Assembly: GCA_965237955.1 (NCBI GenBank)
Contig: OZ250169.1
Span: 1,600,001 to 1,664,000 of the forward strand
Direction of reading: 5' to 3'
DNA length: 64,000 bases
Source of the DNA: Candidatus Marinacidobacterales bacterium
Lineage (GTDB): Bacteria; Acidobacteriota; Vicinamibacteria; Marinacidobacterales; SMYC01
In this document: piece by piece, positions 4,474 to 48,174 of the stretch
How positions within the stretch are numbered: position 1 is the first letter of the stretch
How the letters are laid out: every line of letters starts with the position of its first letter
Position numbers and translations under genes: made by a program
The notes under the pieces: generated by a model
What the model was told of the DNA's origin: nothing
What the model saw: only the letters and a program-made list of their open reading frames with translations
Database searches by the model: none

Positions 4474-6304
4474 ATGAGAAAGCTTACAAATAGCCTAGTA
4501 GCCGGCCAAGTCGCTGCCCTCCTGATAGCCGAATGCATCATCTTGTTCAACCCCGAAGTCCCGCACACGTGGACGAATGTGTTGTCGGTTTGGGGCACGT
4601 GCGCGCTCACGTATGGAATCGCCGCCGGTCTAGGGTTCTGGATGCTGCTGTACCTCGTGGAAGGCCGTACGCGGCAAGCCACTCGGCCCGGCGTGGCTAT
4701 CGTACCGGGTGTTGACGTGGCTCCTCATGCTGGCGCTCGCGGGCGCGGCCGCGCTTTGGTGGCACAACCTCGTCAGCCTGCGTCAGTTCATCCCGCCGGA
4801 GACGCTTCGGGTGGTTGCCATCGCGGCGACCGTGGTGACCGCGTCTTCCGGTGCACTCTTGGTCGTGTCTTTGTTCCATTACTCGTTCGGGCGGCGAGGC
4901 GCTCTCGTCAGCTACGCGGTCTCCGCCTTGTTCCTCGTCGCCGCGCTGACGCTCCCGCTGATCATGCGCCCGGAGCCCGTCGCCGAGGACGTGAGAATGC
5001 CGCTCGAGGAGAACCCGTCGTCACGTCGGTTGACGATCGTCGGTATCGAAAGCGCTTCGATGGCCTACGTGCTACCGGCGGTGGCGGAAGGAAAACTGCC
5101 CAACTTCGCGCGCCTGATAGAAGGTGGTGCGTCCGGTGCGCTCAGAACTCTGTACCCGACCGAGTCCCTCGCCGTGTGGACGAGCATCGCCACCGGCAAG
5201 TTTCCACGCCAACACGGTCTCAAGGCTTTCTACCGCTACCGCTTCCCGTTCGTATCGACGCACTTCTCGCTGCAACCGCGCGGCCTCGACTTCCCCACCC
5301 TCGATCGAATGGGCGCTTTGAAACGCACCGCTGTCACCGCGTCGCTCAGGCGCACTCAGCCATTCTGGAGCATTCTCAGCCGTTTCGGAGTCGATGTCGG
5401 GCTGTTGCGATGGTGGGGCACCTACCCCGCGGAAGAGATCCGGGGCTTCGTCGTCTCCGAATATTTCCACCGTCAAGTCCGGGAACGGTTCGATCCCCCG
5501 CTTCCGGATCTCACCTACCCTCCGGAGCTGTCCGATCGTCTGAGTGAGTACGTGGTGTTGCCGAGCCAGATCGACGGGGACACGCTGAGCCGGTTTGTCG
5601 ATACGTCAGTCGTGGTTCGCGATGGCTTTCCATGGCAATCGGAGCTTTGGCGCGCTCTTGCGGATGACACGACCTATCAAACCATCGGCACTCTACTCCG
5701 CGAAGAAATGGACCCCGACGTGTACGCGATCTATTTCTTTGGGCTCGATGCCATCGGTCACTACTTCACGCGCTACCACCTCCCGGAGCGATTCGGCGAC
5801 GTCAGCGACGAGGAGATCCGCAAGTAGGGACGCACCATCGAATCGTACTATCGCTACCTCGACACGATTCTCGGCGGCTATATCCAATCGCGACAGGAGA
5901 ACGAGACGATCCTCGTGCTCTCGGGTCACGGCATGGAGCCGTTACCCATCACCCGGCGTGTCATCGAGCCGTTCAAAGGCAACCCACATCTTTCCGGATA
6001 TCACGAGGACTCGCCCGACGGACTCCTCATCCTGTACGGCTCCGGCATCGCAGCCGGCGCGAAGATCCAAGGCGCCTCGGTTCTCGACATCACCCCGACA
6101 CTCCTGTACTTGATGGGCCTTCCACTGGGACGGGACATGCCCGGAAGCCTTCGCGCCGACGCCCTCGAAGAGGCGCTGGTACGTACGCAACCGGTGACGT
6201 TCATCTCCTCGTACCACAATTTCCTCATCGAGGCTCGCCGCCCAGTCGACGACGCCGACTGGTCCCCTCTGGATGCGATCCCAGAGCTAGAGGTTCCTGA
6301 GTAG
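4474..6304 (+). pseudogene. Membrane-anchored alkaline phosphatase/phosphodiesterase superfamily protein, interrupted by a frameshift (about 4690) and an in-frame TAG (5825-5827)
   Basis: N-terminal TM segments in two frames, then GKLPNFARL, PTESLAVWTSIATG..HG, GLDAIGH, LSGHG, H...PDG...DITPTLL..MGLP. The frame continues straight through TAG (EIRK*GRTIESYY). May be assembly error rather than a true pseudogene. Confidence 0.75.
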
Positions 6305-6357
6305 CCCCCCTGGAGTTGGTGGGGTCCGGGCGGCGGAAGCTGATAGAATCCGCCACG

Positions 6358-6891
6358 GTGACGGAAACCCAGATCATGGACGCTGCGGCATTCGAGCAAA
6401 AGCTCGAACGCCTCGCGGGAGAGATCGCCGAGAAGACCCGCAGCTTCGATGGTCGCGTCGCTCTGGTCGGGGTTCGGACCCGCGGGGTGCCGCTTTCCAA
6501 GCGGCTCGCGCACCACATCGAAGCTTCCACCGGCCGGCGTCCCGACCTGGGGGTGCTCGACATCACGTTGTACCGCGATGACCTGACAGCCGTGGGCGAG
6601 CAACCCATCGTCCGCCGCACCGAGCTCCCGTTTGCCGTAGATGACACCTGGATCGTGCTCGTCGATGACGTGCTCTACACCGGGCGGACGGTACGCGCCG
6701 CGATCACGGCTCTCATCGACTTCGGGCGACCGAAGACCATCCAGCTCCTCGTGCTCGTCGACCGCGGCTGGCGTGAGCTTCCGATTCACGCCGATTACGT
6801 CGGCACCACGCTCGAGACGGCCCGCGAGCAGACGGTGCACGTCCACGTGGCTGAACAAGACGGGCGTGACGAGGTGGTGCTCTCCGGATGA
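6358..6891 (+). CDS. pyrR: Pyrimidine operon regulator / uracil phosphoribosyltransferase
   Basis: [37 protein letters not shown]. Confidence 0.95.
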
Positions 6892-7847
6892 AGCTCTCGA
6901 GCAAAGACCTTCTCGATATCGAGAGCCTGAGCCCGGAGGAAATCGAGCTCGTTTTGGACACGGCGACGTCGTTCAAGGACGTGAGCGAGCGAACCATCAA
7001 GAAAGTGCCGACGCTTCGCGGCCGCACCGTCATCAACCTGTTCTTCGAAGCCAGCACGAGAACCCGCGTGTCGTTCGAGCTCGCGGCAAAGAGGCTCTCT
7101 GCCGATGCGATCAACGTGAGCGCGTCGGGAAGCTCGGTCGAAAAGGGCGAGACCCTTCTCGACACGGTTCGAAACCTGCAAGCGATGGCGCCCGACGTGA
7201 TCGTCATGCGCCACGGTGCATCGGGAGCGCCCTATGCCGTCGCGAACATGGTCGCCGCCGCCGTCGTCAACGCCGGCGACGGGATGCACGAGCACCCAAC
7301 CCAAGCGCTCCTGGACGCCTACACCATCCGCGAGGCCAAAGGGACACTCTCCCAACTCAAGGTGGTCATCGTCGGCGACTTGCTCCACAGCCGCGTGTTC
7401 CGCTCGAATCTCCGGCTCCTCACCAAGATGGGCTCGCACGTGGTCGTCACCGGACCACCAACGCTCATACCGCCGCACGTCGCCAAACTCGGCGCCGAAG
7501 TCGCGCCCACCATGGACGACGCGATCGCCGGCGCCGACGTGGTGATGATGCTCCGGGTGCAGAAAGAGCGTATGGCGGAAGCGTTTTTTCCGTCGGTGCG
7601 TGAGTACTTTCGCTTGTACGCGCTCACCGTGGCTCGACTCGAGCGTGCCAAGCCAGATGCGATCATCATGCACCCCGGACCTCTCAATCGCGGTCTCGAG
7701 ATCGACTCGAAAGTCGCAGACGGTCCCTACTCGCTGATCCTCGAGCAAGTTACGAACGGTGTCGCGGTGAGGATGGCGGTCCTCTACCTGCTGACCGGCG
7801 GACAACATGGACCGGGCGGACACGACAAAGAGGAAGACCACGCATGA
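6888..7847 (+). CDS. pyrB: Aspartate carbamoyltransferase catalytic subunit
   Basis: [31 protein letters not shown]. Confidence 0.97.
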
Positions 7848-9133
7848 GCCGGCTCGTCGTTCGCGGCGCTCGTATCGTCGACCCCAGCCAGAATCTCGAC
7901 GAGGTCTGTGACCTCGTCCTCACCGACGGAATCGTCGAATCAATAGGCGCGGCGGTCGACGGTGTTCAGAGTGACGACGCTGAAGTGATCGAAGCCAAAG
8001 GCCTCGTCGCGGCGCCGGGCTTCATCGATATCCACGTTCACCTGCGTGAGCCCGGCTTCGAGTACAAAGAGACGATCGCGAGCGGCTCGCATGCAGCCGT
8101 TGCCGGAGGGTTCACTGCCGTCGCCGCGATGGCGAACACCGATCCTCCGAACGACAGCGCCGCGGTCACCGAGTTCATTCTCAGAAAGGCCGCGCAGGCG
8201 GACAAGGCACGCGTGTATCCCATCGGCTCCATCACCAAGGGCAGGTCGGGCGCCGAGCTCTCCGAGATGGGCGAAATGGTGGAAGCGGGCGCGGTCGCGG
8301 TGTCGGACGACGGGCTCCCGGTGGGCGACGTGAACGTGATGCGGCGCGCGATGGAGTACGCCACTGTGTTCGATATCCCCGTCATCGAACATTGCGAGAC
8401 GCCCGAGCTTCACCCCGGCGGCGTCATGAACGAAGGCTACTGGTCGACTGCTCTCGGCCTTCGCGGCATCCCTCGCGCTTCCGAGGAGATTTCCGTGGAC
8501 CGCAACGTCGTTCTCGCCGAGATGACGGGGGCGCGCTTCCACGTGGCGCACCTGTCCACGAGCGGTGCGCTCCGACGCGTGAAAGAGGCGAAAGCGCGAG
8601 GGCTCGTCGTCACCTGCGAGGTCACGCCCCACCACCTCGTTCTGACCGACGAGAGCGTGAAATCCTACGACACCGCAGCGAAGATGAGACCGCCGCTCGT
8701 GACCGAGAGCGACCGCGCCGCGCTTCTCGAGGGTCTCGCGGATGGGACCGTGGACGCGATCGCGACCGACCATGCTCCGCACCACATGGACGAGAAGAGC
8801 GAAGACTTCGACCACGCCCCGTTCGGTATCGTCGGCCTCGAGACCGCGGTATCGCTCTGTCTGGATCGGCTCGTCCGACCGGGCGTGATTTCGCTATCGC
8901 GCATGGTCGAGCTGTTGTCGATTGGTCCCGCCCGCATTCTCGGCGTGCCCGGTGGCTCGCTCGCAGTCGGCGCCCCCGCGGACGTAACGCTTTTGGATCT
9001 CGAGCGGCGCGTCCGTGTCGATCCTGACACTTTCGTATCGCGTGGGAGGAACACGCCCTTCGCCGGTTGGGAGCTCACCGGCTCCGCGACCACCACGATC
9101 GTCTCCGGCCGTGTCGTATGGACGAGAGAGTAA
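7844..9133 (+). CDS. pyrC: Dihydroorotase
   Basis: [26 protein letters not shown]; operonic with pyrB. Confidence 0.95.
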
Positions 9134-34293: not shown

Positions 34294-36170
34294 AGAAACT
34301 CGTCATCGCGAATCGAGGGGAGATTGCGCGCCGCATCCTGCGCTCCGCGCGGGAGCGCGGCTACCTCGTCGCGGTGATCTCGACTGCCGAAGACGCGGAC
34401 GCCCTCGTCCGCTCCGAAGCGGACACGGTGCTCGAAGTGTCGAGCTTTCTCGATGCCAAAGCGATCGTGCGTGCTGCCAGGAAGTGGGACGCCGATTTGT
34501 TGCACCCCGGCTACGGGTTCTTGTCGGAGAATACCGATTTCGCTCGACAAGTGGAATCCGCCGGCATGCGGTTCGTCGGCCCGACGCCGGAAGCGATGGA
34601 GCGTCTCGGCAACAAGGAGAGCGCGAAAAAGATCGCGGAAGCGAACCGCGTGCCGACGCTAGCGTCGGTACGGTTCGACGAAATCGACGACATCGCGGAC
34701 AAAGGAATCGAACCGCCGTACTTGGTGAAGGCCGCCGGCGGTGGTGGAGGTCGCGGGATGCGCGTCGTCGAGACCGCCGAAGGGCTACCCGCCGCGCTCG
34801 AGCGGGCGGCGGAAGAAGCCAAGGCCGGCTTCGGTGATCCGACGGTGTTCATCGAACGTTTCCTCGCCGAGCCGCGTCACATCGAGATCCAAGTCGTCGG
34901 CGACGGTAAAGGCGGAGGTGTGGCTCTCGGCGAGCGCGAGTGCTCGATGCAACGGCGCTATCAGAAAGTGATCGAAGAAGCGCCGAGTCCGGTCGTCGAC
35001 GATGTGTTGAGGAAGAAAATGAGCGCGGCGGCGATGAAACTCGTTCGAGCGACGAACTACCGCGGCGCGGGCACGGTGGAGTTCTTGCTCGATATCGATG
35101 GCGGCTTTTACTTTCTCGAGGTGAACACCCGTCTTCAAGTCGAGCATCCGGTGACCGAAGCGGTGTACGACGTCGACCTCGTCGCCGTTCAACTCGCACT
35201 GGCCGAAGGCGAGTGGCCACAGCACCTCGATGCACTCGAGCCCAACCGATGGGCGATCGAAGCCCGGGTGCTCGCGGAAGATCCGCGATCGGACTTCTTG
35301 CCGACGCCGGGCCCGCTCATTCGCTACCGAGAGCCAAGCGGTTTGGGAATTCGTGTCGACTCCGGCGTCGCCGAAGGCAACACCGTACGAGCCGAGTTCG
35401 ACTCGATGATCGCGAAGGTCATCGCCGTCGGTGAGACGCGCTCGGAAGCGATCGAGCGTCTCGGCCCCGCGCTCGCGTCGTTCGTCGTCCATGGTGCGGT
35501 CACGAATTTGCCGTTCTTGCAAGCCGTGGTTCGCCACCCCGAGTTTCGCGACGCGTCGTTTTCGACGGCATGGATTGGCGCCAACATCGACGAGCTCAAC
35601 CGTTCGCTTCTGCCACAGGAACTAGAGGGGCGTCTTGGCACCCCGGGATTTCGCGAGCAGCTTTCGTTCGCGCTTCGCGGCGGCGCTTCCGAGACGCGTG
35701 CTGCGGCTCGCTTTCGTAGTCTAGGAAACGCCACCGCGCGCTTGGGAAGCTCTCGCGAGCACGCCGCGCTCGACGTGGAAGCCGACCCGGTGACGGGCAC
35801 CGTCGTCCTGTCGGGACCCGGCCTCGCCGAACCCATAGAAGGCGTTGCCACCGTGCTCGACCCGACCGCCATGGCGCTCACCGTGCAGGGCGAAACCCTC
35901 CGGCTCGACGATCCCCAGGCCCTCAAGCACCGCCGGGTGAAGCTCGTCGTGAGCGACGGCGAAGTGAGAGCCCCGATGGCGGGCAAGGTGCTCAAGATCC
36001 ACGTCGAGCAAGGCGCGAGCGTCGAGGAGGGTGAACTGCTCATCGTTGTGGAATCGATGAAGATGCAGCTCGAAGTCCACGCCCCCATTGCGGGTCGCGT
36101 GGAGAGCATCGAAGTAGAAGAGGGCCAAATCCTAGATGGACCGGATCTAATGGCCGTCCTGACTCCGTAG
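34290..36170 (+). CDS. Biotin carboxylase with biotin-carrier domain (LiuD/AtuF-like alpha subunit)
   Basis: IANRGEIA, HPGYGFLSEN, GGGGRGMR, ECSMQRR.QK, EVNTRLQVEH, ESMKM biotin site. Confidence 0.92.
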   Translation: MKKLVIANRGEIARRILRSARERGYLVAVISTAEDADALVRSEADTVLEVSSFLDAKAIVRAARKWDADLLHPGYGFLSENTDFARQVESAGMRFVGPTPEAMERLGNKESAKKIAEANRVPTLASVRFDEIDDIADKGIEPPYLVKAAGGGGGRGMRVVETAEGLPAALERAAEEAKAGFGDPTVFIERFLAEPRHIEIQVVGDGKGGGVALGERECSMQRRYQKVIEEAPSPVVDDVLRKKMSAAAMKLVRATNYRGAGTVEFLLDIDGGFYFLEVNTRLQVEHPVTEAVYDVDLVAVQLALAEGEWPQHLDALEPNRWAIEARVLAEDPRSDFLPTPGPLIRYREPSGLGIRVDSGVAEGNTVRAEFDSMIAKVIAVGETRSEAIERLGPALASFVVHGAVTNLPFLQAVVRHPEFRDASFSTAWIGANIDELNRSLLPQELEGRLGTPGFREQLSFALRGGASETRAAARFRSLGNATARLGSSREHAALDVEADPVTGTVVLSGPGLAEPIEGVATVLDPTAMALTVQGETLRLDDPQALKHRRVKLVVSDGEVRAPMAGKVLKIHVEQGASVEEGELLIVVESMKMQLEVHAPIAGRVESIEVEEGQILDGPDLMAVLTP

Positions 36171-36252
36171 CGCTAGCCTTGCATCTCGGCTAGGAGTTGA
36201 CCCCGTGCCCGCGCACGGGCTCGGACACGGGCACGATCTGGCAACGGAGCTG

Positions 36253-36299
36253 CCCTATTGACACTACGCGACCCGTCCGCGAGAATTGAATCAATAGGG
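36253..36299 (+). promoter_or_regulatory. Putative sigma70 promoter of the ubiquitin-like operon, bracketed by a 9-bp inverted repeat
   Basis: TTGACA (36258-63), 17 bp, GAGAAT (36281-86); ccctattga (36253-61) and tcaataggg (36291-99). Confidence 0.55.
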
Positions 36300-36340
36300 T
36301 CCTGGTTCCACAAACCTTCCGTCCTCTGGAGTCCAAGTCC

Positions 36341-36622
36341 ATGGGTGATGTCAACCTAGAAGTCTGGGATGCCACCGGTAACAAACGGGTCGAAGTCGAG
36401 GTGCCCGACGACGTTACCGTGGATCGCATCCTGCTCGTTCTCGCGGACAAGCTACACCTTCCCAAGCACAGCCCCGACGGCCAGTTGATGAGCTACAAGT
36501 TTCACCACCGGCGGCTCGGGATCCAGCTTCTCGACGACAAAACGCTCGCCGATCAGCAAGTTGCTGACGGTGACGTAGTTCGAATCCAGCCAGAGATAAC
36601 CGCTGGCGTCGTCTGGGCGTGA
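36341..36622 (+). CDS. Ubiquitin-like beta-grasp protein (YukD/EsaB-like) with a short C-terminal extension
   Basis: VEVPDDVTV..IL..L...L.LP, L.DDKTLAD..V.DGDVVRIQPEITAG followed by VVWA; first gene before E1. Confidence 0.85.
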   Translation: MGDVNLEVWDATGNKRVEVEVPDDVTVDRILLVLADKLHLPKHSPDGQLMSYKFHHRRLGIQLLDDKTLADQQVADGDVVRIQPEITAGVVWA

Positions 36623-36626
36623 AGCT

Positions 36627-37776
36627 TTGAAACTCTCGCACAGCGAGCTCGGCATTGACGGCAGGCACGAGAGCGACGACAGCGCGGGCCGCTATCACCG
36701 ACAAGAGCTCATTACCTGGTGGGATCAGAGTCGAGTGCGCTCCGCACGCGTTCTCGTCATCGGCGCCGGCGCGCTCGGAAACGAAATCCTGAAGATCCTG
36801 TCGTTGACCGGCATCGGCGAAGTGCTCGTCTATGACATGGACGTCATCGAGCAAAGCAACTTGTCCCGCGGTGTCTTGTTCCGCGATGAAGACAAAGGCT
36901 CGGCCAAAGCGACGGTCGCGGTCGAGCGCATGCGCGAGCTCAACCCCGACGTGAGCGCCCACGCGCGCGTGGAGAACTTGAACCACAAGGCCGGCCTGGG
37001 AGTGTTTCTGTGGGCCGACGTCGTGATCTGTGGACTCGACAACCGCGAAGCACGCATCTTTGCCAACAGTGCGTGCGCAGCCACGGGTCGGACCTGGGTC
37101 GACGGCGCCATCGAAGGGTTGGCTGGCATCGCCCGCGTTTTCAATCCGGCGGAAGGCGCGTGCTACGAATGCACCATGAACGAGACCGACCGGAAACTCG
37201 TGGCCGAGCGGCGTTCGTGCGCGATGCTCGCGCGGGCCATCGTCGAGTCCGGACACGTGCCGACGACCGCGGTAGCAGCATCCCTCGTCGCGGCTCTCGA
37301 AGTTCAAGAAGCGATCAAGATTCTTCATGGTCAACCCGCCATCGTCGGCGAAGGCACCACTCGGCCTTCGAAGCGACGCGATAACTTTCGAAGCGCTTGT
37401 CGAGCGAGCGGAAAAAGAGCTCGGCAATGGTGCGGTTTTGGAGCTCAGCCGCGACGTCATCGTGTCGCTCGAATGCGCCGCGTGCGGCACGCGTGAGCCG
37501 AGGTACGTTGTTCTCGGCGAGCTCGGCGAGAAAGATGCCGCGTGCCCGAAGTGCAGTGCCCACCGTATCGTCGAGTTCGCCTCGTCGGTTTCGCGCGACG
37601 GCGTCGTCGATTTGAGCCGAACGCCGCAACAAGCAGGTTTGCCGCCGTTCGACATCATCGTCGCCCGTCAAGGCCTGGACGATCAGCGCGCGTGGCTCTT
37701 CGACGGAGACGCAACCTCGGTGCTTGGACCTCTCACGGTTCCCGCGGAGATGGGAGGTGTTCTTGAACGGTCTTGA
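36627..37776 (+). CDS. E1-like (ThiF/UBA) activating enzyme, frameshifted near 37355
   Basis: RYHRQ..I.WW.Q, VLVIGAGALGNE, D.D.IE.SNLSR, GLDNREAR, ACYEC, RRSC (candidate catalytic Cys). The second frame carries CAAC/CPKC and GLPPFDII. Confidence 0.88.
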
Positions 37777-39007
37777 CACGCGTGCCATCGACACCAAGGA
37801 GCTTTCGAAGGAGACGTTTCCTCACGTCCGGCACGGTTTTCGTATTTTTATCTCGGAAGACGCGTTCGATCGTGCGACCGAGCGCGGGCAGGCGGACCTG
37901 ACGCGCGAAGTGGGCGGCGTTCTCGTCGGCCGTATTCATCAGGACAAGAACGGTCCGTTCGTTAAAGTCGATGCGACCATCGACGCGCTCTACGCTGAAG
38001 AAAAGGAAACGGAGCTCACGTTCACGCAAAAGACGTGGGACTACATTCACAAAGAGCTGGAATCCAAACACAAGGGCAAGAAGATCGTCGGCTGGTACCA
38101 CACGCATCCAGGCTTCGGCATCTTCTTGTCGGATCGGGATCTCTTTATTCATCAAAGCTTCTTCAACCTTCCCTACCAAATCGCGCTCGTCTATGACCCG
38201 AAGAGCCACGAGCACGGTGTGTTCGCGTGGCGCGACAACGAGCCCGCGCGGTGTCGACAGTACTGGGTCGGGCACGAAGAAAACCTTTGGGACGGTCCCC
38301 GCATGGCGGTGGAGCCCATGGCTGCCGTCGTAAGCCCGGAGAAAGAGGACATGAGCAACAAACGGGTCGAGCTCGCGCCTTCGGAGCGCGAATGGGATTG
38401 GGCGACGTTCGCGATCACCGCGGTGGCGCTTGTGCTGATTGGTGGTCTCGCGGGTTTCTGGTTCGCGCAGTACCGGATGCGCGACGCCATTCGTGAGGCG
38501 CAAATGCGCATCGATCGGGATCGAGCGGCGGCGGCGGAAGTATTGCTTCGAGGGCTGAACGTGGAGCTCCTGAGCTTCGTGCGCGAGGCTGCTTCCGGCG
38601 GTTCCGGGCTCCGCCGGGATTTCGATGAAGGGCTCACCGCCATCGATCTCGGTGTCGTACAGCTTTCGAGGGGAGGTGACACGAAAGACGCACTCGTTCC
38701 GTTGATCGCGGGCCGGCGCAAGCTCAAAGAGCTTCGCGACGCGCATTTCGCAGCCGATCGCTCGTTGAGGCTCTTGCAGAGTCTCGGCGAGAAGACCTCT
38801 GCGATCCCGAGGGAAGTCACCCGGATGCTTTCCGATCAACGCGCCGCGCTCGGTCAGCTCTACGCGGAGGTCGCGGAGGATGTTGCCCAAGCGGGGGACA
38901 ACCGGCGTGCCCGGCGTCTTCTCCGACTCGCGGCCACACTGGATCCCGGAAACGCGCGCCGCTACGAGGACAAGCGGGCCGGATTGAAAGAGGAGGGATC
39001 ACCCTGA
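37763..39007 (+). CDS. JAB/JAMM (Mov34/MPN) metalloprotease with one TM helix and a helical C-terminal region
   Basis: EVGGVLVG...VGWYHTHPGFGIFLSDRD motif; TM ATFAITAVALVLIGGLAGFWF; GGAGGT RBS before TTG 37763. Confidence 0.88.
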   Translation: MNGLDTRAIDTKELSKETFPHVRHGFRIFISEDAFDRATERGQADLTREVGGVLVGRIHQDKNGPFVKVDATIDALYAEEKETELTFTQKTWDYIHKELESKHKGKKIVGWYHTHPGFGIFLSDRDLFIHQSFFNLPYQIALVYDPKSHEHGVFAWRDNEPARCRQYWVGHEENLWDGPRMAVEPMAAVVSPEKEDMSNKRVELAPSEREWDWATFAITAVALVLIGGLAGFWFAQYRMRDAIREAQMRIDRDRAAAAEVLLRGLNVELLSFVREAASGGSGLRRDFDEGLTAIDLGVVQLSRGGDTKDALVPLIAGRRKLKELRDAHFAADRSLRLLQSLGEKTSAIPREVTRMLSDQRAALGQLYAEVAEDVAQAGDNRRARRLLRLAATLDPGNARRYEDKRAGLKEEGSP

Positions 39008-40383
39008 GCGAACGAGTCGTCATCCAAAGGGACGAGCTCTACGACAAGAGCGTCGACGAAGCGCTGAGAAAAGAGCGTCAGCTTCGCACCCACGTCGTTT
39101 CCCAAGAGCCTCCCGATCTGTCTCCGGTACGAAGGCTCATGATGTCGAGCCTGTTCTACCTTCCCGTCGCGGGACTTCTGGCGAGCTTCACCGCCTGGGT
39201 TTTGATCGAGCCGCACTTCGCCGACTTTTCCCTAATAGGTGGGGAAGTGCTTCTCGTGAACTCCGAGCCCTTCGAGTTCGGGGACGGCTCGGTCGATCCC
39301 GAGCTCGGCGACGCCATCAACCTCACAATAGGGGACAACAAAGTCATCGTGTTCCCCAATCTCATCTCGATGGAGCCGGGAGCTGACTCTCAGCCGCCCT
39401 TCAACGACATTTCCGAGGTCCAACCCGGAACGTATCTCGAAGCGGTGGGCGAAGTCTGGGCTGAGAACGAGATGGTCGCGGGCGCGCTTCGTCCGGCGAC
39501 GGCAACGCACGCTGGCGACACGGGTGATCAAATCGGGAGCGGCGACAACTTCGCGGGCTTGCTCCTGTTCCCCTTGACCGCGGTCTTCATCGCCGTCGCC
39601 ATGCTCGTCGCGGAAGGGGTATCGAGTCGCAACTGGGTTCGGATGATCGATCGCGTGATGATCGGGGTCTTGTTGACGGCGATCTTCTCGTTCCTCTCGT
39701 TCATCCCCGCTGCGATCATGATGACCATTGCTCAGTCCGTCATGTCGATGGACGCGTCTGCCGACTGGACCACGGTCCAGGACATGCCGGCGGTGACGTT
39801 CGTCTTATACGCCGCTTGTCGCAGCGGCGCGTGGGCCTTCATCGGCGCCGGCCTCGGGCTGGGGATGAACCTTGCCCGCAGCACCAAGAGCCAGCTACGA
39901 AACTCGGTCATCGGCGGCGCTCTCGGCGGCGTGTTCTTCGACCCCATCGATCGATTTTTTCAAGAACCGTCGGCGTTCGCGGGCGCCGAGCTGTCCCGCC
40001 TCGTCGGTTTGGTCGCGGTAGGACTGTCCGTGGGCTTTTTCGTGGCTCTCGTCGATCAGCTCGCACGTGAAGCGTGGCTGCGCGTGCGGACCGGTCCGCT
40101 CGCGGGAAAATCGTTCGTTCTCTACAAGACGCCAACGACGGTTGGAAGCTCACCGTCGGCCGACGTTTATTTGTTCAAAGATGCGGCCATTGATCCCGAT
40201 CACATCGCGATCCATCGCGTCGGCAACCGATACGAGATCGAGGACCTCGGCACCCGCTCCGGCACCCAAGTCGGCGGGCAAGCCATCAGACGACAACGCC
40301 TCAACTCCGGCGATCAAATTACGTTGGGCGCGACCGTGCTCGAGTTCGAAGAGCGCGCCAAACAATCGAGCAGCGCGGAGTGA
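39004..40383 (+). CDS. Polytopic membrane protein with C-terminal FHA domain
   Basis: The frame opens at CTG 39004, overlapping the JAB stop (CTGA) after GAGGAGG. Several TM segments, then GPLAGKSFVL...TVGSSPSADVYL.KD..I...H...IEDLGT.SGT.V.G...L.SGDQI.LG. Confidence 0.82.
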   Translation: MSERVVIQRDELYDKSVDEALRKERQLRTHVVSQEPPDLSPVRRLMMSSLFYLPVAGLLASFTAWVLIEPHFADFSLIGGEVLLVNSEPFEFGDGSVDPELGDAINLTIGDNKVIVFPNLISMEPGADSQPPFNDISEVQPGTYLEAVGEVWAENEMVAGALRPATATHAGDTGDQIGSGDNFAGLLLFPLTAVFIAVAMLVAEGVSSRNWVRMIDRVMIGVLLTAIFSFLSFIPAAIMMTIAQSVMSMDASADWTTVQDMPAVTFVLYAACRSGAWAFIGAGLGLGMNLARSTKSQLRNSVIGGALGGVFFDPIDRFFQEPSAFAGAELSRLVGLVAVGLSVGFFVALVDQLAREAWLRVRTGPLAGKSFVLYKTPTTVGSSPSADVYLFKDAAIDPDHIAIHRVGNRYEIEDLGTRSGTQVGGQAIRRQRLNSGDQITLGATVLEFEERAKQSSSAE

Positions 40384-40399
40384 GTCGAGGAGGAAACCC

Positions 40400-40969
40400 A
40401 TGGGCCAGACGGTAAACCGGCTCAAAACCAATCGAGTCCTCGAAGGCAAGCCGTGCGGGTGGTGCTCTAACACGCTGACGTTCGGAGAGGACGCAGCTCT
40501 TTGCGAAGGCTGCACCACCGGCCATCACGCAGCGTGTTGGGACGGAAAGGGCGGGTGTGCCTCGGCCGGCTGTGTGAACGCACCGCTGAAACAGCTCGCG
40601 CCGCAGCCGGAGCGGCCCGTGGGGCCGCCACCGGGCAAGATGAATTGTCCGAACTGCCAGCTCCAAATACCGGCGAGCTCCGTTCGGTGCGAGTACTGCA
40701 ACGTGGGCGTCACCTCCCCGGATGGAGTGTACCGGGGACCCACGCAGACGGCCCCGGGCGCGGTTGCATCGCTCGTGTTCGGGATCCTGGCGTTTTTCCT
40801 TTGCGGCATCATCTTTGGTCTCGTCGCCATCCAGAAGGCGGACGAAGCCAAGACCGCGATCGCCGCCGATCCGAGTCTTACCGGCGGCGGCATCGCGACA
40901 ACGGGGAAGGTGCTCGGGATCATTGCCCTCGTCGTTTGGGGTCTGGGCTTGATCATGCAGGCCATGTGA
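40400..40969 (+). CDS. Prokaryotic RING finger + Zn ribbon + DUF4190-like membrane domain (candidate E3)
   Basis: CGWC..CEGC..HHAACW..GGC...GC; CPNC..CEYC; GAVASLVFGIL...CGIIFG...G.G.A..G.VLG; GAGGAGG RBS. Confidence 0.82.
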   Translation: MGQTVNRLKTNRVLEGKPCGWCSNTLTFGEDAALCEGCTTGHHAACWDGKGGCASAGCVNAPLKQLAPQPERPVGPPPGKMNCPNCQLQIPASSVRCEYCNVGVTSPDGVYRGPTQTAPGAVASLVFGILAFFLCGIIFGLVAIQKADEAKTAIAADPSLTGGGIATTGKVLGIIALVVWGLGLIMQAM

Positions 40970-40973
40970 GGAT

Positions 40974-41387
40974 GTGATGGGAGCTCGTCTGAAAGATTTG
41001 GGTCTGGGCGTCGTTGCCGCCGGCTGGCTCGTCGCTGCGACCTGGATGACGCCCGCGGGGGACGTCCTCGCCGCGCCATCGGGCGAGACGCTACCGACCA
41101 TGTGCTGGATCCGAGCCACCACCGGTCACGCGTGCCCGACGTGCGGTATGAGTCGAAGCTTCGTCGCGTTTTTTCATGGCGACGTAGGCCACGCGTTCCA
41201 GTTTCATCCGGTGGGCCCGGTCCTCGCGGCGGCTACGGTGATGGTTCTCGTTTCGGTTCTCGGGCTCGCGATCTCGGGGCGCAGGCCGCTTTGGGGTCGC
41301 CCGGTTTTCGCGCGCGCGCTGACGCTCTCGGCGGCGGGCGCTCTTTTCGCTGGCGTGGTACGCATGTTGGTTGGAGGGCTCGGATGA
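40974..41387 (+). CDS. DUF2752-like membrane protein
   Basis: C.....TGHACPTCGMSRSF....HGD...AF..HP motif with TM segments. Confidence 0.8.
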   Translation: MMGARLKDLGLGVVAAGWLVAATWMTPAGDVLAAPSGETLPTMCWIRATTGHACPTCGMSRSFVAFFHGDVGHAFQFHPVGPVLAAATVMVLVSVLGLAISGRRPLWGRPVFARALTLSAAGALFAGVVRMLVGGLG

Positions 41388-41923
41388 ATCGCTGCTCGGT
41401 TTGTCACACGTTGATTCAAGAAGGTGTGCCGACGCGTACCTGTCCGGAATGCCATCAGCAGTATCATGAGAGCTGTTGGGAAGGCATTGGGGGGTGCGCG
41501 ACGTACGGCTGCGAGAAAGTCGCGCCCGCGGAAAAACCAGAACCGGTGGCGGTGCAAGGCACGGGGTGGGGCGACAGTAAATCGTGTCCGGCGTGCGAGG
41601 TTGAGTTGAGCTCGAGCTTTCTCGTGTGCAGCTGCGGAGCCCAGTTCCCGTACGCGGACTCGATGACGAAGGATGAATACTACCACTGGCTCGCGAAGCA
41701 GGAGCAGATCAATTCCGCGCGTCGTTCTCTCGTCATTCTGTTCGTAGTCTGTTTGGCCGGCGTGCCCGCTCCGGTGATCGGGCCGATCGCGGGATGGTAT
41801 GCCTTTACCAAGAGAAAACAGCTGGAGGGCGCCGGTGGCACGTATCTCGCCATGGGATACGGTACCGCGGCGCTAGGAGCGACCTACGCGTTGATGATGC
41901 TCGCGCTCGCGTTGGGATTCTAG
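41384..41923 (+). CDS. Second prokaryotic RING finger + Zn ribbon + TM protein (candidate E3)
   Basis: CSVC..CPEC..YHESCW..GGCATYGC; CPAC..CSC; C-terminal hydrophobic helices; ATGA overlap. Confidence 0.82.
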   Translation: MNRCSVCHTLIQEGVPTRTCPECHQQYHESCWEGIGGCATYGCEKVAPAEKPEPVAVQGTGWGDSKSCPACEVELSSSFLVCSCGAQFPYADSMTKDEYYHWLAKQEQINSARRSLVILFVVCLAGVPAPVIGPIAGWYAFTKRKQLEGAGGTYLAMGYGTAALGATYALMMLALALGF

Positions 41924-41941
41924 GGAGTTGTCAGGACACTC

Positions 41942-43228
41942 GTGACGATGAGCACCGTAGGGGGGACGATTTGTCCTGAGTGCAGCGCTCCGGTCAAGGT
42001 GCGTCTCATCGGTGGTGAGGCGTGTCCGCAGTGTGAATCGTCGAAAGCCTGGGAGCGCTACGGCGGGGACGGCCACAAGCTCGTCATCCACAAGCGGGAT
42101 ATTGCAGAGGCCGAAGCCAAGATCACCGGACAAGCCGACGGTTCGGCGGCGACGGCGCGGTACTGGTTGCCGGGTCTTCTTGCTCTCGGCGTCGGCATCG
42201 GAGCGAGCTTTTTCGTGCGCGAGCTCTTCAGCGCTCGTCCGCTCGGTCCCTTGGAGCCGTTGGTCGCGGAGCTGCAGCGAACGTCCCTCATGCGCGCAGG
42301 GCTCGGCGTTGTGGCTCTCGCGGTAGGCATTGCATCGACGCTCGCGCAGAAAAAGGGATCTCTGTTCAGGAACGCGACTCTCCTCATCGTGAACTTGTCC
42401 GCGGTGCTCGTGGGAGCGGTCACGATGCTCGTCGGTGCATTTCAATGGGCCAACTGGGGCGGTGCGAGCGGCGTCGGCTGGGCTCACATGGCGATGCCGC
42501 CGCTCGCGGGAGCTCTGTCAACGACGCAGGCGATCACCGCCCAAGAGAAATCCATCATGTCGGCGACGACGGTTCTGGTCGCACCGGATGGGAACGGAGA
42601 CGCGCGCGGAATGTCGTTGGGATCGGGCGCTGTCATCCGCAGCGACAGCGGAGCTGCATTTGTGGTGACCTGCTCTCACGTCGCCATGCCGTATGCTTCG
42701 GTTGCGGCTTTCCGGGATCCTAAGGATGCCCATCCCGTGTGGGTCTATTTTTCGGATGGGCGCCATGCCGAGGGACATGTCGTGTGGACCGCCGAGCCGC
42801 CCCTCGACGTCGCGGTCGTGCGCGTCGACATCGAAGACCCTCCCAATCCGGTACCGGTGCGCGCGAGCGCGGATGCGGCCGAGCAAGGGTTCGACGTGTC
42901 GTTCGTGCCCAACCCGTTCCGCTCGGGATGGACGGTGCACCGCGGCAAAGTGCTGAAGCGGGAGTCGCACCGGACGCCTGCCGGAGAATACAGTTTGATC
43001 TATACCAGTTTGCCGGTGCAGCCGGGGGACAGTGGTACCGGGCTCTTCGATAGTTTGGGTCGCCTCGTCGGGCTCAACACGTGGACGCAGATCGAAGAAG
43101 GGGGACCGAGGGGCATCAGCTTGCCGTCGAACACGATGGAGCGCATCGTCGAGATGATGGAGATGACGGAGATGATGGACGCCAACGAGCTCGTCAACTT
43201 GGACGGGCTGGATGGGGCAGATCCATGA
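41942..43228 (+). CDS. Membrane-anchored trypsin-like serine protease with N-terminal Zn ribbon
   Basis: CPEC..CPQC, about 3 TM helices, triad motifs TCSHV / LDVAVV / PGDSG..LFD..GRLVGLNT. Confidence 0.82.
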   Translation: MTMSTVGGTICPECSAPVKVRLIGGEACPQCESSKAWERYGGDGHKLVIHKRDIAEAEAKITGQADGSAATARYWLPGLLALGVGIGASFFVRELFSARPLGPLEPLVAELQRTSLMRAGLGVVALAVGIASTLAQKKGSLFRNATLLIVNLSAVLVGAVTMLVGAFQWANWGGASGVGWAHMAMPPLAGALSTTQAITAQEKSIMSATTVLVAPDGNGDARGMSLGSGAVIRSDSGAAFVVTCSHVAMPYASVAAFRDPKDAHPVWVYFSDGRHAEGHVVWTAEPPLDVAVVRVDIEDPPNPVPVRASADAAEQGFDVSFVPNPFRSGWTVHRGKVLKRESHRTPAGEYSLIYTSLPVQPGDSGTGLFDSLGRLVGLNTWTQIEEGGPRGISLPSNTMERIVEMMEMTEMMDANELVNLDGLDGADP

Positions 43229-44220
43229 GCAACTTTCGACTACGTCGTCTACAGTCGGACTACGAGGCGGTGAAACGTCTCGTTCACTTGCATCCGAAGA
43301 TCGAGGTCGAGGGGGTGAGCGGAAACCCACCCGACCGCTATCGGTTGGTGATGCGGGTTCGCTCGCTGCGCGAGCAGGGCGAGCGCGTCGATCTCGCCAG
43401 AGAACATCGCCTCGAGATCACGCTTCCCAAGGGCTACCCGCGAGATGCACCGGTGTGTCGCATGCTCACGCCGGTCTTTCATCCCAACATCGCGCCGCAT
43501 ACGGTTTGCATCGGGGATCACTGGAGCGCTGCCGAGCGCCTCGACGAGATGATCCAACGCGTCGGAGAAGTGCTGGGGTTTCAGAGCTACAACGTGCAGA
43601 GCCCGCTGAACGGCCAGGCGGCGCGCTGGGTCGAAGAGCACATGCATCGGCTGCCGATCGAAAAAGAAGAGTTTTTCATCGATCTTTCGAGCGCCGTGCA
43701 CCGTGACGTCAAGACCGCGAGTCAAGATCAATGCTCCAACTGCGGCGCCAAGGACAAACCGCTCGAGCCGTGCGGGACGGGGCACGTCCTGTGCGGCGAT
43801 TGCGTCGCGCACTGCAAAGTATGTGGGTCGGTTCTTTGCCTCGCCTGTGGATCGACCAGTTGCAAGGCATGTGCTCAGGCCGCACTCGCGGCTACGGCGC
43901 CGACGGCGGCGAGAGTGCAGGCGCCCGTCAACCCCACTCGGCCAACCGGGCCCACCGGGCCGGGCGCGGCCACAGGCGCCACCGCGACCGCGACTTCGAC
44001 CGCGACGTCTGTCTCTGCTGTTCCCGCAAAAGCCGCGCCCGAGGCCGCCGCGGCGCAGCATCAAGGTTGGGTCTGCAGCAATTGTGGCACGCGAGATACC
44101 AAGGCCGTGCAGTGTCGCCAAAAACACATCCTGTGCTCGAATTGCATGATTCGCTGTCAGACCTGTGGGCGCGGGTTGTGCATGATGTGCGGCCAGTACC
44201 CTTGCCAGGCGTGCGCCTGA
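43225..44220 (+). CDS. E2 ubiquitin-conjugating (UBC) domain fused to two Cys-rich RING-like Zn-finger repeats
   Basis: RLRRLQSDY, LPKGYPRDAP, TPVFHPNI....VCIGDHW, SPLNGQAARW; two CxxC-x9-CxxxH-xx-CxxC-CxxC-CxxC-CxxC units. Confidence 0.88.
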   Translation: MSNFRLRRLQSDYEAVKRLVHLHPKIEVEGVSGNPPDRYRLVMRVRSLREQGERVDLAREHRLEITLPKGYPRDAPVCRMLTPVFHPNIAPHTVCIGDHWSAAERLDEMIQRVGEVLGFQSYNVQSPLNGQAARWVEEHMHRLPIEKEEFFIDLSSAVHRDVKTASQDQCSNCGAKDKPLEPCGTGHVLCGDCVAHCKVCGSVLCLACGSTSCKACAQAALAATAPTAARVQAPVNPTRPTGPTGPGAATGATATATSTATSVSAVPAKAAPEAAAAQHQGWVCSNCGTRDTKAVQCRQKHILCSNCMIRCQTCGRGLCMMCGQYPCQACA

Positions 44221-44222
44221 AC

Positions 44223-44409
44223 TGTCGGAATTCCAGACACCGCCTGCGTTTTCCCCAAGTCACGCTGCTCCCAAGAGTTAACACTGTCCTCCTGGGACCG
44301 GGTGTCGGCTCGCATGACAACCGGAGCGTCCGAGCAAACCACTCAGCGCGCGAACGTCCTGGTTTCACGCTGGTAAATCCGCAACACCCGTGTTGGCGCG
44401 ATGTTTGCT
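44223..44409 (+). promoter_or_regulatory. Sigma54 promoter with two upstream TGT-N11-ACA boxes
   Basis: tgtcggaattccagaca (44223-39), tgtcggctcgcatgaca (44303-19), TGGCGCG-ATGT-TTGCT (44394-44409). Confidence 0.7.
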
Positions 44410-44441
44410 TTGACTTTGATGTACTCAACCAAAGGACGGGA

Positions 44442-44594
44442 ATGGACGAGGGACGTCTGCGCGAATTCGAGGACTGGGCGCTCAGCGAGCGATCGCAGCT
44501 CAGCGACTCCGAGAACGTACTGCTCGACGCGATCGCGGAAGCGTGTTTGGCGGTTCGCCTAGCATGGCAAGACCAAGAATCCCGTCGCGGGTAG
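44442..44594 (+). CDS. Small acidic helical protein (50 aa)
   Basis: AAAGGA RBS; lies directly downstream of the sigma54 site; MDEGRLREFEDWALSERSQLSDSENVLLDAIAEACLAVRLAWQDQESRRG. Confidence 0.55.
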   Translation: MDEGRLREFEDWALSERSQLSDSENVLLDAIAEACLAVRLAWQDQESRRG

Positions 44595-44818
44595 CTCGAA
44601 GCGTGGCGTGACAAAGCGAAGACCTACCGAGAAGAGCTTCAAAAAGACCATGAGGCCATTGAAGGCGCCGACATCGAGCTTGCCGTCGGGGACAAAGATG
44701 CCGCGGTCAAGGCACGCTCCATCCTGAACGATCGTCTGCAAACCCACCCCGAAGTCGAGTAGAGCGCTTTCACGCTTTCACGTTGCCGAGAAAAACGAGC
44801 CTACTGAATCCGCCCGAT

Positions 44819-45865
44819 TCACTCTTCCAGCTTGCCGGAGAGGCGAGAGAAGTAGGATCGCAGCTTCGCAGGATCGCTCGTCGTGGCAAGCACGGCGACG
44901 AGCACGAGGCGGGCTTTCAAGCCGTCCAGATCCTCGCCCGAGATCACGCCGGAGCGCTTCGCATCGTCACCGACCAGGACGCGGCCGCCACCGGCGCGCG
45001 CCGTGAACACGACTGTGACGTCCTGGTTGCGCGCGTCCCGAACCGCGTCCATGACTTTCGGCGGAACATTCCCGCGCCCGAACACCTCGAGCACGATACC
45101 TCGCTGACCGGAGGCGACCGCGGCGCGGACTTGGCTTCCGTCGCTTCCTGTGAAGAGTCGAATGAGGGTGACCCGCGGCTCGACGGCATCGACGTCGAGC
45201 GTGAGTCGACGCGCCGGCTTGCGAGCCAGGTAGATGTTCTCGCCGTCGAAATACCCGAGCGGGCCGAATCCCGGTGACGCGAAAGCGTTGGTTGCGACGG
45301 TGTGGGTCTTCCGCACGTCGCGCGCCGTATGGATCTCGTCGTTCAACGTGACGAGAACCCCGAGACCTCTTGCTCCCTCGGTCGCGGCCAGGCGAACTGC
45401 GTTCAGGAGATTGCGAGGAGCGTCGGTGTCGCTTCGACGCGGCGGTCGCATCGCCGCCACGAACACCACGGGGCGATCGTCCTCCAACAAAAGGTCGAGG
45501 AGGAAAGCGGTTTCCTCGAGCGAATCGGTTCCATGGGTGACGACGATTCCCGAGAGCTCCGGCTCATCGTGGAAGAGCTCGTTGACGCGCTTTGCGATGC
45601 CGAATTGCAGCTCCGGCGTCATGCGCGAGCTTCCGATCGCCATGTAGTCCTCCACGCTCAGCTCGGCGACGCTCGCCAGCGCTGGGTTCAGCTCTTTGAG
45701 CTCGGCCGCGGACAGCGAGCCGGCGCGGCCACCGGCGATCGTCCCGCCGGTAGCGATCAAGCGCACTTTCGGCTCGTCGGAAGCGGAGACACTGGAAGCG
45801 CACAGGATGAGTGCGCACAAGATCCGCTGATAGTTCCAGTTACCCACGCGTGCGTGTTTTAGCAC
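44819..45865 (-). CDS. L-asparaginase/glutaminase (type II-like, signal peptide); start uncertain
   Basis: ATGGTIAG, HGTDSLEETAF, AMRP, KTHT, G.GNVP. Confidence 0.9.
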   Translation of the reverse strand: MLKHARVGNWNYQRILCALILCASSVSASDEPKVRLIATGGTIAGGRAGSLSAAELKELNPALASVAELSVEDYMAIGSSRMTPELQFGIAKRVNELFHDEPELSGIVVTHGTDSLEETAFLLDLLLEDDRPVVFVAAMRPPRRSDTDAPRNLLNAVRLAATEGARGLGVLVTLNDEIHTARDVRKTHTVATNAFASPGFGPLGYFDGENIYLARKPARRLTLDVDAVEPRVTLIRLFTGSDGSQVRAAVASGQRGIVLEVFGRGNVPPKVMDAVRDARNQDVTVVFTARAGGGRVLVGDDAKRSGVISGEDLDGLKARLVLVAVLATTSDPAKLRSYFSRLSGKLEE

Positions 45866-46790: not shown

Positions 46791-48174
46791 GGGTCTACGC
46801 GGGTTCGTGTGGGTTGAAAACGGCATTTCTGGGTAATGGCGGAAGGAATGCCGCCACGATCTTCAGCTTGAGATATCCCTCGTCACGATAGCCGTAGGCG
46901 CGTCGTTGCAGAACACGGATTTTGTTGTTGACCCCTTCAACCAGTCCGAGACTGACTTTGTTCTCAGGATGACAGTAGGAGGCGATACCATCCCAATGGG
47001 ACTCAATCATTCCGGCGAACTTCTGGTAGGGATGCAGGCGCTGCCATTTGAGGCTGTCTTTCCAACGTGTGAAAAAGGCGCGAGCCCCGCGTTCGGTGCG
47101 GTAATCCCAGAGTTGCCCGAAGGCCTCCTTCAAAACATAGGCGGTGTTCAGGCGCCGGTTGGCCTGGAGCAACTTCTTGAGTGCGCGGCGACCGTCCAGG
47201 CTCAGGTTCTCCCGCCGGGAAAGCAACGTGTAACGCTGCCCCTTGATATACGACCGGTCCTCGCCGCTGAGGCGTTTGTACTCACGGCGCCGGACCTCAT
47301 CGAGAGCCTTTGACAGGTGACGCATGATATGAAACTTGTCGAAGATGATCCGCGCATTGGGTGCGTTGTTAATCACCGAGTTCCGGAAGGGCTTCCACAT
47401 ATCCATGGCGGCCAGCTTGATACGGGCGCTTTTCTTCCCGCCCAGCGCCTTGAAGAACAAATCGATGTCGGTTTCTTTGCGACCCTCACCGCCCACCCAG
47501 ATGGGACGCGCCCGCTCCAGGTCGCTGACAATGACACGATAGTTATGTCCCTTGCGGATGGAGATCTCATCAATACCGATGGCCCGAGGCGCCGGCAGCC
47601 CCGCCCGCTCGACTTGCTCTTGCATGTAGAGCTTATCCAGGTCCTTCACCGTAGTGTGGTGCAGACGTTCCATCTCGGCCACCGCCTTGTTCGGCATATC
47701 CCGGCACAGCTTGCCCACATGCGTCGCAAAGCGCTGGGTGTAGCGCGGGTTGTTCGCCAGCCAGTCCAAGTGTTCTACATGCACACCACCGCACCCACGA
47801 CAGTTGACGCGCCAACGCTCGTATTCCAGATAGATCCGCCAGCCTGCCAACGACAGGTCGCGGACCCGGCACACTTGCTTGTCATAGCGCCCCCGGCACC
47901 GATGCCCACAGTACGAGCACACGGCTGTTTTTTTCGCCTCTTGAGCTGGATGACGCGGGCGTATCGGTCACCGAATACACCGTTCAATCGGGCGCCAGCC
48001 ACGAAACCTGGTAGCGCAAAAAGCGAGCGGATCGACTGGGGATTTTTCACTCGGTTAGCCTATCCGAAAAACGGATCACTTCTCAGCACCTGATGAAGTG
48101 CTGAATACCTTTTCCACACAATGAGTTACACTATTTCTCCGTCAGCATTCGCCCACAGATTTCCGCGTAGACCC
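46791..48174 (-). mobile_element. ISL3 family insertion sequence (1384 bp) with 8-bp target duplication
   Basis: TIRs gggtctacgcgg..tgtggg / cccaca..ccgcgtagaccc; ATATTTCT duplicated at 46783-46790 and 48175-48182; lower GC than the flanks. Confidence 0.95.
46795..48050 (-). CDS. ISL3 transposase, two ORFs joined by a probable -1 frameshift at A7 (47928-47934)
   Basis: CxxC Zn finger, IGIDEIS..KGHNY, AMDMW, FDKFH, EG.NNKI....RRAYG; upstream ORF ends ...LKRRKK at A AAA AAA C. Confidence 0.9.

Follow-up and report, generated by a model that had tools for sequence, protein, structure and literature searches.

A predicted membrane-associated ubiquitin-like conjugation operon of the Prok-RING_1 kind, with a broken E1, in a Candidatus Marinacidobacterales genome

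Prokaryotic operons that unite a ubiquitin-like protein (Ubl), an activating enzyme (E1), a conjugating enzyme (E2), RING proteins with the Prok-RING_1 domain and a JAB peptidase were reportedly predicted by Burroughs, Iyer and Aravind in 2011. Here we describe an operon that belongs to this predicted kind (Prok-RING_1, PF14446) at positions 36341-44220 of a window of 64,000 nucleotides from a Candidatus Marinacidobacterales bacterium (assembly GCA_965237955.1, contig OZ250169.1, positions 1,600,001 to 1,664,000). The accessible parts of the published accounts describe related operons of Actinobacteria, Planctomycetes and Acidobacteria as uncharacterised and sporadic (PMC4197634; PMC3417536; PMC7159879). 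As described there for Acidobacteria and Planctomycetes, Ubl, E1, E2, JAB and Prok-RING_1 fingers lie in one operon that is missing in close relatives; the window's copy differs in that its E1 is broken. No experimental study of the membrane Ubl/E1/E2/RING operon type was found in a literature whose coverage omits most subscription journals, and the accessible text on Prok-RING_1 operons made no mention of the phospho-blind FHA domain, the dead-protease clade or the E1 loss alleles reported below.

Three described systems share parts with this operon. According to the text available, the Bil Type I/II systems (BilABCD) also have a pro-Ubl whose single Gly is exposed by JAB trimming, and Cys-based E1 and E2 enzymes (10.1101/2023.09.26.559546; PMC11601596). 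However, Bil comprises four soluble genes in the order Ubl-E2-deubiquitinase-E1, has no E3 (ligase) and uses an IAD-AAD-CYS E1 without ubiquitin-fold domain, whereas here there are six membrane proteins, an E1 with a single AAD and a ubiquitin-fold domain, and an E2 of the full UBC type that carries HPN. PADLOC scored its proteins weakly overall (BilD only 6.4e-7), and an assignment to Bil was rejected on the E1 domain layout and the membrane genes. The operon of Caldiarchaeum subterraneum, the only prokaryotic three-step cascade demonstrated to function in the literature consulted, shares an E1 with a C-terminal Ubl domain, a canonical E2, a RING protein and an Rpn11-like JAB (PMC5654768, in the portion accessible). 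It was set aside as the type of the present operon because its ubiquitin is a true di-Gly protein and its RING-H2 is small and soluble, in contrast to the Ala-Gly YukD-like Ubl, membrane C4HC3 fingers and membrane JAB found here. Lastly, vWA-MoxR systems of the FtsH-ternary kind, which carry a tri-ligase Ubl module, contain JAB, E1, prokaryotic RING, Ubl and E2 in the available part of their description (PMC7159879). In our case, however, MoxR, vWA, FtsH, EAD1 and caspase are all missing from the nine genes, and Ubl and E2 are separate.

The list of open reading frames (ORFs) and a Pfam scan give nine co-oriented plus-strand genes in the order Ubl, E1, membrane JAB, membrane FHA, RING-type, DUF2752, RING-type, membrane trypsin and E2. 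Every domain call of an earlier note, made by a model from the letters of this DNA, was matched by Pfam (YukD, ThiF, JAB, FHA, Prok-RING_1, DUF4190, DUF2752, Trypsin_2 and UQ_con), and its count of six genes with transmembrane (TM) helices agrees with a Kyte-Doolittle scan, which found hydrophobic helices in 6/9. A membrane-associated Ubl/E1/E2/JAB cascade is well supported, as all its catalytic motifs are conserved and its membrane genes are linked with E1/E2 in both directions (see below). The tight spacing claimed in that note (overlaps or gaps under 20 bp) holds, at -14 to +18 bp, except at one junction, where JAB lies 134 bp from the ATG of the FHA gene. This gap becomes a 4-bp overlap if the FHA gene begins at CTG 39004, a start favoured by an upstream GAGGAGG, by the same CTG in G006 (an Acidobacteriota genome from the host's family) and by an in-frame N-terminal segment conserved in homologues.

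The wider family was surveyed from E1 relatives (3029 at E 1e-30 among 7999 scored), using the best 80 of 500 genomic stretches; the family profiles were built from these loci. The loci span Acidobacteriota, Myxococcota, Planctomycetota, Armatimonadota and others. Gene counts refer to the 47 loci with at least 7.5 kb downstream of E1, the other 33 being too short. Among these 47, mostly in the same order, we counted JAB in 47, the TM-FHA protein in 47, Ubl in 46, a finger in 46, trypsin in 45 and E2 in 45, followed by DUF4190 (38), the E2 zinc tail (32) and the optional DUF2752 (20), which is also absent from G006. Moreover, E1 was detected (E 1e-70) in 26 of 251 Planctomycetota genomes, 14 of them close (at least 450 bits), and TM-FHA in 16 that include all 14; in 251 Acidobacteriota genomes close E1 and TM-FHA occurred in the same 2 (7-9 candidates were scored per genome, and kin are not independent). 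Since the membrane genes and E1/E2 are linked in both directions, the failure to co-occur that the earlier note had named as fatal to its proposal does not apply.

The first gene (36341..36622) encodes a YukD-like Ubl of 93 amino acids (PF08817, 2e-11) that ends in EITAG plus a 4-residue tail, as a putative pro-form. All 78 plus-strand matches share the Thr-Ala-Gly end; 11 stop at the Gly and 67 have unconserved tails, a pattern that suggests a pro-form trimmed by JAB, by analogy with Bil and Caldiarchaeum. The JAB/MPN+ peptidase (37763..39007; PF01398, 2.2e-11) has one TM helix and a helical TPR-like tail predicted outside, and its metal-site motif HxHx7SxxD is present in 82/82 copies. TPR-like ESM Atlas matches of the tail score 0.82-0.84, below 0.9, and are a lead only. 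The last gene (43225..44220; UQ_con 2.7e-9) encodes an E2 with UBC fold, HPN, Cys95 and a Cys-rich zinc tail. The HPN...C active-site region, already recognised in the earlier note, is invariant (H86, P87, N88 and C95) in 54/54 aligned E2s, one truncated copy being omitted. Its best PDB matches are eukaryotic E2s (E about 5e-12), and no bacterial E2 occurs among the best 60 of 240 PDB matches. A Bub (6E/DUF6527) system was discarded as a candidate: there was no DUF6527 match, and Cys instead of Ser/Tyr stands at the catalytic position of E1 (80/80 related loci) and of E2 (54/54).

A closer inspection of the E1 gene revealed that it is broken. The N-terminal part (36627..37356; ThiF 1.4e-48), an adenylation domain with Cys at the catalytic position, matches positions 10-238 of the family profile, and the C-terminal part (37357..37776), an out-of-frame ubiquitin-fold domain with a zinc ribbon, matches positions 268-400. 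A 92-bp deletion with its junction at 37355..37356 shifts the frame between them, so that the gene spans two frames (36627-37496 and 37327-37776) and the N-terminal reading runs on out of frame to 37496. With the missing positions 239-267 the adenylation domain loses its end, comprising two strands and the conserved C-G-H zinc-ligand motif. A family-profile search of the 98% complete genome found no second E1 copy. The earlier note had called the operon complete, without noticing the break; this does not hold for the source genome. In G006 an intact E1 of 409 amino acids lies in the same surroundings, and E1 is unsplit in 79/80 related loci. A programmed frameshift was ruled out, as 29 model positions are gone.

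To judge the deletion against sequencing reads, we used 8 runs, from 7 studies, of the 18 that contain at least half of the operon's words. The short form was present in read-derived contigs of run X1 (possibly the source run; depth 21) and of run X3 (depth 34), which comes from X1's study and represents a different sample and strain (18 differences/1400 bases); an assembly error is thereby ruled out. In run X2 the two forms are both present, with low depths (4 and 2.8); there the long one exceeds the short by 91 bases, possibly an error. Contigs of runs X5, X7 and X11 bridge 37355-37356 with 92 extra bases, and loose ends at the deletion site in runs X8 and X16 are consistent with the long form. 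Deleted and intact E1 alleles coexist in close strains. With its adenylation domain cut short and its C-terminal domain thrown out of frame, the E1 of the window's strain is predicted to leave the cascade inactive, and the tagging pathway is likely off there. The loss is likely recent, given a ratio of nonsynonymous to synonymous substitution (dN/dS) of 0.04-0.17 against G006 for the eight genes common to both genomes. Two further contigs of run X3 also depart from the window: one, at depth 6.7, lacks 6960 bases (36868-43829) and with them most of the operon, and in another the first finger gene carries an insertion of one base.

The intact E1 of G006 was used for structural modelling (whole-protein predicted local distance difference test score, pLDDT, 85.9). 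The best Foldseek match of the model was UBA3 (2.3e-20). It aligned with SUMO E1 over residues 20-388 (Z 28.0, 305 aligned, root mean square deviation 3.5) and with UBA3 over residues 15-387 (Z 28.5, deviation 7.3), and the alignments with UBA3, SUMO E1 and UBA1 all reach residue 387-388; in the model the C-terminal part thus reads as a eukaryote-like ubiquitin-fold domain. The adenylation domain is closest to MoeB/ThiF (Z 30.9). This closeness, and the existence of JAB-Ubl-MoeB sulfur clusters, one of them in the source genome, would suit a sulfur-carrier or small-molecule pathway of the ThiS/MoaD type. Such a pathway is extremely improbable, however: the operon contains an E2, fingers and a ubiquitin-fold domain, it lacks rhodanese and cofactor genes, and all ThiF/MoeB equivalogs score well below their cut-offs.

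Two genes encode RING-type fingers. The first (40400..40969) combines a C4HC3 finger (Prok-RING_1, 2.1e-8, 34.4 bits) with a zinc ribbon and a DUF4190 two-helix anchor (1.1e-8), and the second (41384..41923) a C4HC3 finger (1.9e-6) with a zinc ribbon and two TM helices; at 28.2 bits the latter falls just below the Prok-RING_1 cut-off of 29.1, which the former exceeds. Between them lies the DUF2752 membrane protein (40977..41387; 9.4e-16). The C4HC3 pattern was present in 138/140 plus-strand finger matches (its invariance in alignment A2 follows from how that alignment was built). A model of the second finger (pLDDT 88.9) matches cross-brace fingers, with RING and PHD rows mixed in Foldseek and none at E < 0.001. 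By VIA, RING-type rows lead (Z 4.5-5.7), C1 and PHD follow (3.7-4.1) and the differences are near or under 1 Z; the top rows include alpha-COP and GATOR2 (best Z 5.7). Because the fold ties RING with PHD and C1, we infer E3 activity only from context. Of the E1-E2-E3 cascade at the inner membrane proposed in the earlier note, the Ubl, E1, E2 and JAB motifs and the membrane genes support all but the E3 step.

The same tie would be expected if E1 and E2 conjugated without an E3, as in Bil, and the fingers had a structural or a lipid- or peptide-binding role within a membrane complex. In addition, the central helix of the finger is short, the C-P-x-C motif is lacking, and the Bil E2 has been proposed, in the part of the account available, to choose its targets itself (PMC11601596). 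We nevertheless consider conjugation without an E3 very improbable: the majority of the 12 best VIA rows are RING domains, and fingers occur in 46/47 loci. Moreover, in 89/93 fingers a hydrophobic residue precedes the second Cys and a Trp follows the sixth ligand, which echoes the Ile and Trp that the Caldiarchaeum RING is described as requiring (PMC5654768, accessible in part).

The fourth gene (39004..40383, likely from the CTG start; FHA 1.4e-12) encodes a multi-TM protein with an insert predicted to face outward and, at its C-terminus, an FHA domain. FHA domains that bind phosphothreonine carry the motifs G-R, S-x-x-H and N-G. These are visible in an alignment with GarA and fail in the operon's FHA domain, where across the family Arg is found in 0/69, Ser in 2/69 and Asn in 1/69, while His stands in 69/69 and a Lys-Asp pair, new and invariant, occupies the same loops. 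By contrast, Arg, Ser and Asn are all retained in the other 8 FHA domains detected in the source genome. As the phosphothreonine site is lost throughout the family, the domain is likely a phospho-independent binding module, and the loss of the site revises the first reading of the operon. For the insert there was no usable ESM Atlas match, and DUF5666 was weakly matched in 1/5 homologous inserts. A YukD-family Ubl beside a membrane FHA protein without phosphothreonine site also occurs in the YukD-YukB(EssC) module of the type VIIb secretion system. In the available parts of two studies the FHA domains of EssC/YukB are described as phospho-blind (PMC11217815), and those of YukB as helping to hold YukD in the membrane complex (PMC12637312). 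There, however, YukD is non-conjugated and structural, touching the FHA and DUF domains of the ATPase, and the present operon has no secretion ATPase or WXG100 gene.

The eighth gene (41942..43228; Trypsin_2 5.5e-18) encodes a zinc finger, 3 TM helices and a PDZ-less trypsin domain of the HtrA type with intact His and Ser motifs. From the three helices of the hydropathy scan this domain is predicted to face outward, away from the tag. Of the 55 copies compared, 11 lack both the His and the Ser motif in an otherwise whole operon, so proteolysis is not obligatory. Nine of the 11 are titled Blastocatellia or its families and the other 2 share their flanks; protease loss was probably one event. 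The coupling to a membrane protease suggested in the earlier note is accordingly weakened: the membrane trypsin gene is there, but its product is catalytically dead in a fifth of copies and predicted to lie on the far side of the membrane.

With their membrane anchors, the C4HC3 fingers look like eukaryotic membrane E3s. This likeness would fit quality control similar to endoplasmic-reticulum-associated degradation (ERAD), in which damaged membrane proteins would receive the tag on the inner side, be cut on the outer side by the trypsin domain and pass to FtsH or another AAA protease for degradation. Planctomycete copies have the HtrA-type trypsin domain joined to a finger (20 finger matches fall on protease ORFs), and related systems couple to FtsH or Pup in the accessible part of one survey (PMC7159879). 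However, with only 3 extra inner genes across 80 loci, no AAA gene lies within the operon, which encodes neither motor nor proteasome; the 98% complete genome has HslV beside HslU only, with no 20S and no CDC48_N, FtsH not having been searched for. Taken together with the dead proteases and an operon that is rare and dispensable, unlike housekeeping genes, these data make the ERAD-like pathway put forward in the earlier note improbable. The source genome also contains a lone Pup-ligase-family gene with a hydrophobic insert and no proteasome adjacent (G000:C1:5201817-5203490).

We read the operon instead as a reversible tagging switch (write, read, erase) on the inner membrane's cytoplasmic face, a reading to which we give an even chance. 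By analogy with Bil, Caldiarchaeum and eukaryotic chemistry, JAB would trim the pro-Ubl to its Gly, E1 would adenylate it and hand it by thioester to E2, which would dock on the ubiquitin-fold domain, and the fingers, being tethered, would carry E2~Ubl to lysines of membrane proteins. More tentatively, an envelope cue might be sensed by the domains predicted to face outward (the FHA-protein insert, the JAB tail and the trypsin domain, live or dead), the FHA protein without its phosphothreonine site might serve as scaffold or tag reader, the membrane JAB might reset the tag, and the output might be an assembly or change of state rather than supply to a proteasome. A specific version, in which the FHA domain binds the conjugated YukD-like tag as reader and an outside cue acts through the (pseudo)protease domain to drive covalent, reversible assembly of a membrane complex, is an unlikely proposal that we offer by analogy with YukB and YukD. 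If true, this would be the first RING E3 cascade in bacteria and a ubiquitin code that works without degradation or phosphorylation, and the natural E1-null strains would be a ready control.

Several observations weigh against the tagging switch. The cascade is predicted from genes and models, with putative conjugates, substrates, cue and expression, the predicted topology comes from the hydropathy scan, the E3 role of the fingers leans on context given the tied RING, PHD and C1 scores, and the proposed reading of the Ubl tag by FHA follows the YukB-YukD likeness. The loop-4 position of E2s is usually hydrophobic; here it is Arg in 54/54. Turnover by a membrane protease such as FtsH is possible. 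Lastly, the operon is patchy (2/19 genomes of the host's family), its flanks are varied (400 clusters among 532 flank genes), and together with the loss alleles these features fit a conflict system equally.

Such a system could be a defence, in which a sensor in the envelope would answer attack by phages, predators or competitors by tagging membrane proteins of the invader or the host; this explanation is possible though on balance unlikely. The bacterial E1/E2 systems so far tested (CBASS Cap2, Bil) are antiphage, and RING-containing families are predicted to be likewise in the accessible part of one report (10.1101/2023.09.26.559546). Patchy spread, many insertion sites and the E1 loss alleles in close strains also favour defence, as does one case, L031, in which the operon's divergent neighbour (4637-8242, minus strand) encodes a 1201-amino-acid protein with NACHT, YukD-like and FGE-sulfatase domains, its Ubl part being nearly a copy of the operon's own; the protein is possibly an integrated decoy or adaptor. 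However, when the 312 nearest neighbours were reduced to one per cluster (244), only 6/244 matched PADLOC at E 1e-20, mostly through generic domains (a count without random-gene control), and only one WYL neighbour was seen. Evolution is slow, with an E2 domain 94% identical to that of G006 and the low dN/dS given above, the flanks are alike in the source genome (G000) and G006, and the operon has neither an effector gene nor a Bil-level PADLOC score. The envelope-triggered defence suggested in the earlier note therefore retains its patchiness and loss alleles and finds little in its neighbours.

The operon type has the most eukaryote-like parts, namely a UBA3-like E1 with a ubiquitin-fold domain, a canonical E2, membrane fingers and a membrane eraser, and activity, if shown, would bear on the origin of the eukaryotic cascade. 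The window's own copy is a poor test case, because its E1 is broken and its kind was already predicted in 2011. What is added here are the family-wide FHA and protease observations, the natural loss alleles and cultured carriers of intact copies (Lacipirellula, L088; Aeoliella, L071).

Several related loci depart from the common layout. In L081 Ubl and E1 form one ORF, L087 has a 553-amino-acid E2 with a TM tail and no protease, L052 has a split operon with its second half inverted nearby, and L070 has a split E1. The G017 region (L009) gave no blastn match. Coupling to kinases was not accepted: 15 kinases lie in 692 kb of flanks versus 79 in the 8.13 Mb of G000, several are at one orthologous site, and the hosts differ. 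A second cluster in the source genome (L094; G000:C1:3138206-3139975) contains, next to an insertion-sequence-like ORF, an E2-like ORF recognised by eye, ThiF and a weak Prok-JAB (E 0.008), with no Bil match in PADLOC at 1e-5.

Upstream of the Ubl gene, by 55 bases, lies a putative sigma70-type promoter-like site on the plus strand (TTGACA-17-GAGAAT, 36258..36286). It is the sole one in 36100-44900, where 1.4 are expected by chance, and both hexamers are identical in G006; an inverted repeat around it is not conserved there. Terminators did not exceed chance level, and no common upstream regulatory motif was seen by eye across 75 loci. A short motif, hydrophobic-x-hydrophobic-S/T/D-x-x-D/E-L, occurs at the N-terminus of the FHA protein (39004-39060) in 58/70 copies and, more weakly, in the linker before the TM helices of the protease (42070-42110) in 13/52, against 0.3-0.8 expected; it may be a docking motif. 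The idea that all operon proteins share it was unsupported for E1, JAB, the fingers and Ubl. Downstream, a small hypothetical gene (44442-44762, plus strand) carries an in-frame TAG at 44592-44594, and its G006 copy is intact at 110 amino acids. Further on, an ORF on the minus strand (46795-47922), presumably an ISL3-type transposase, sits in a stretch of slightly lower GC content.

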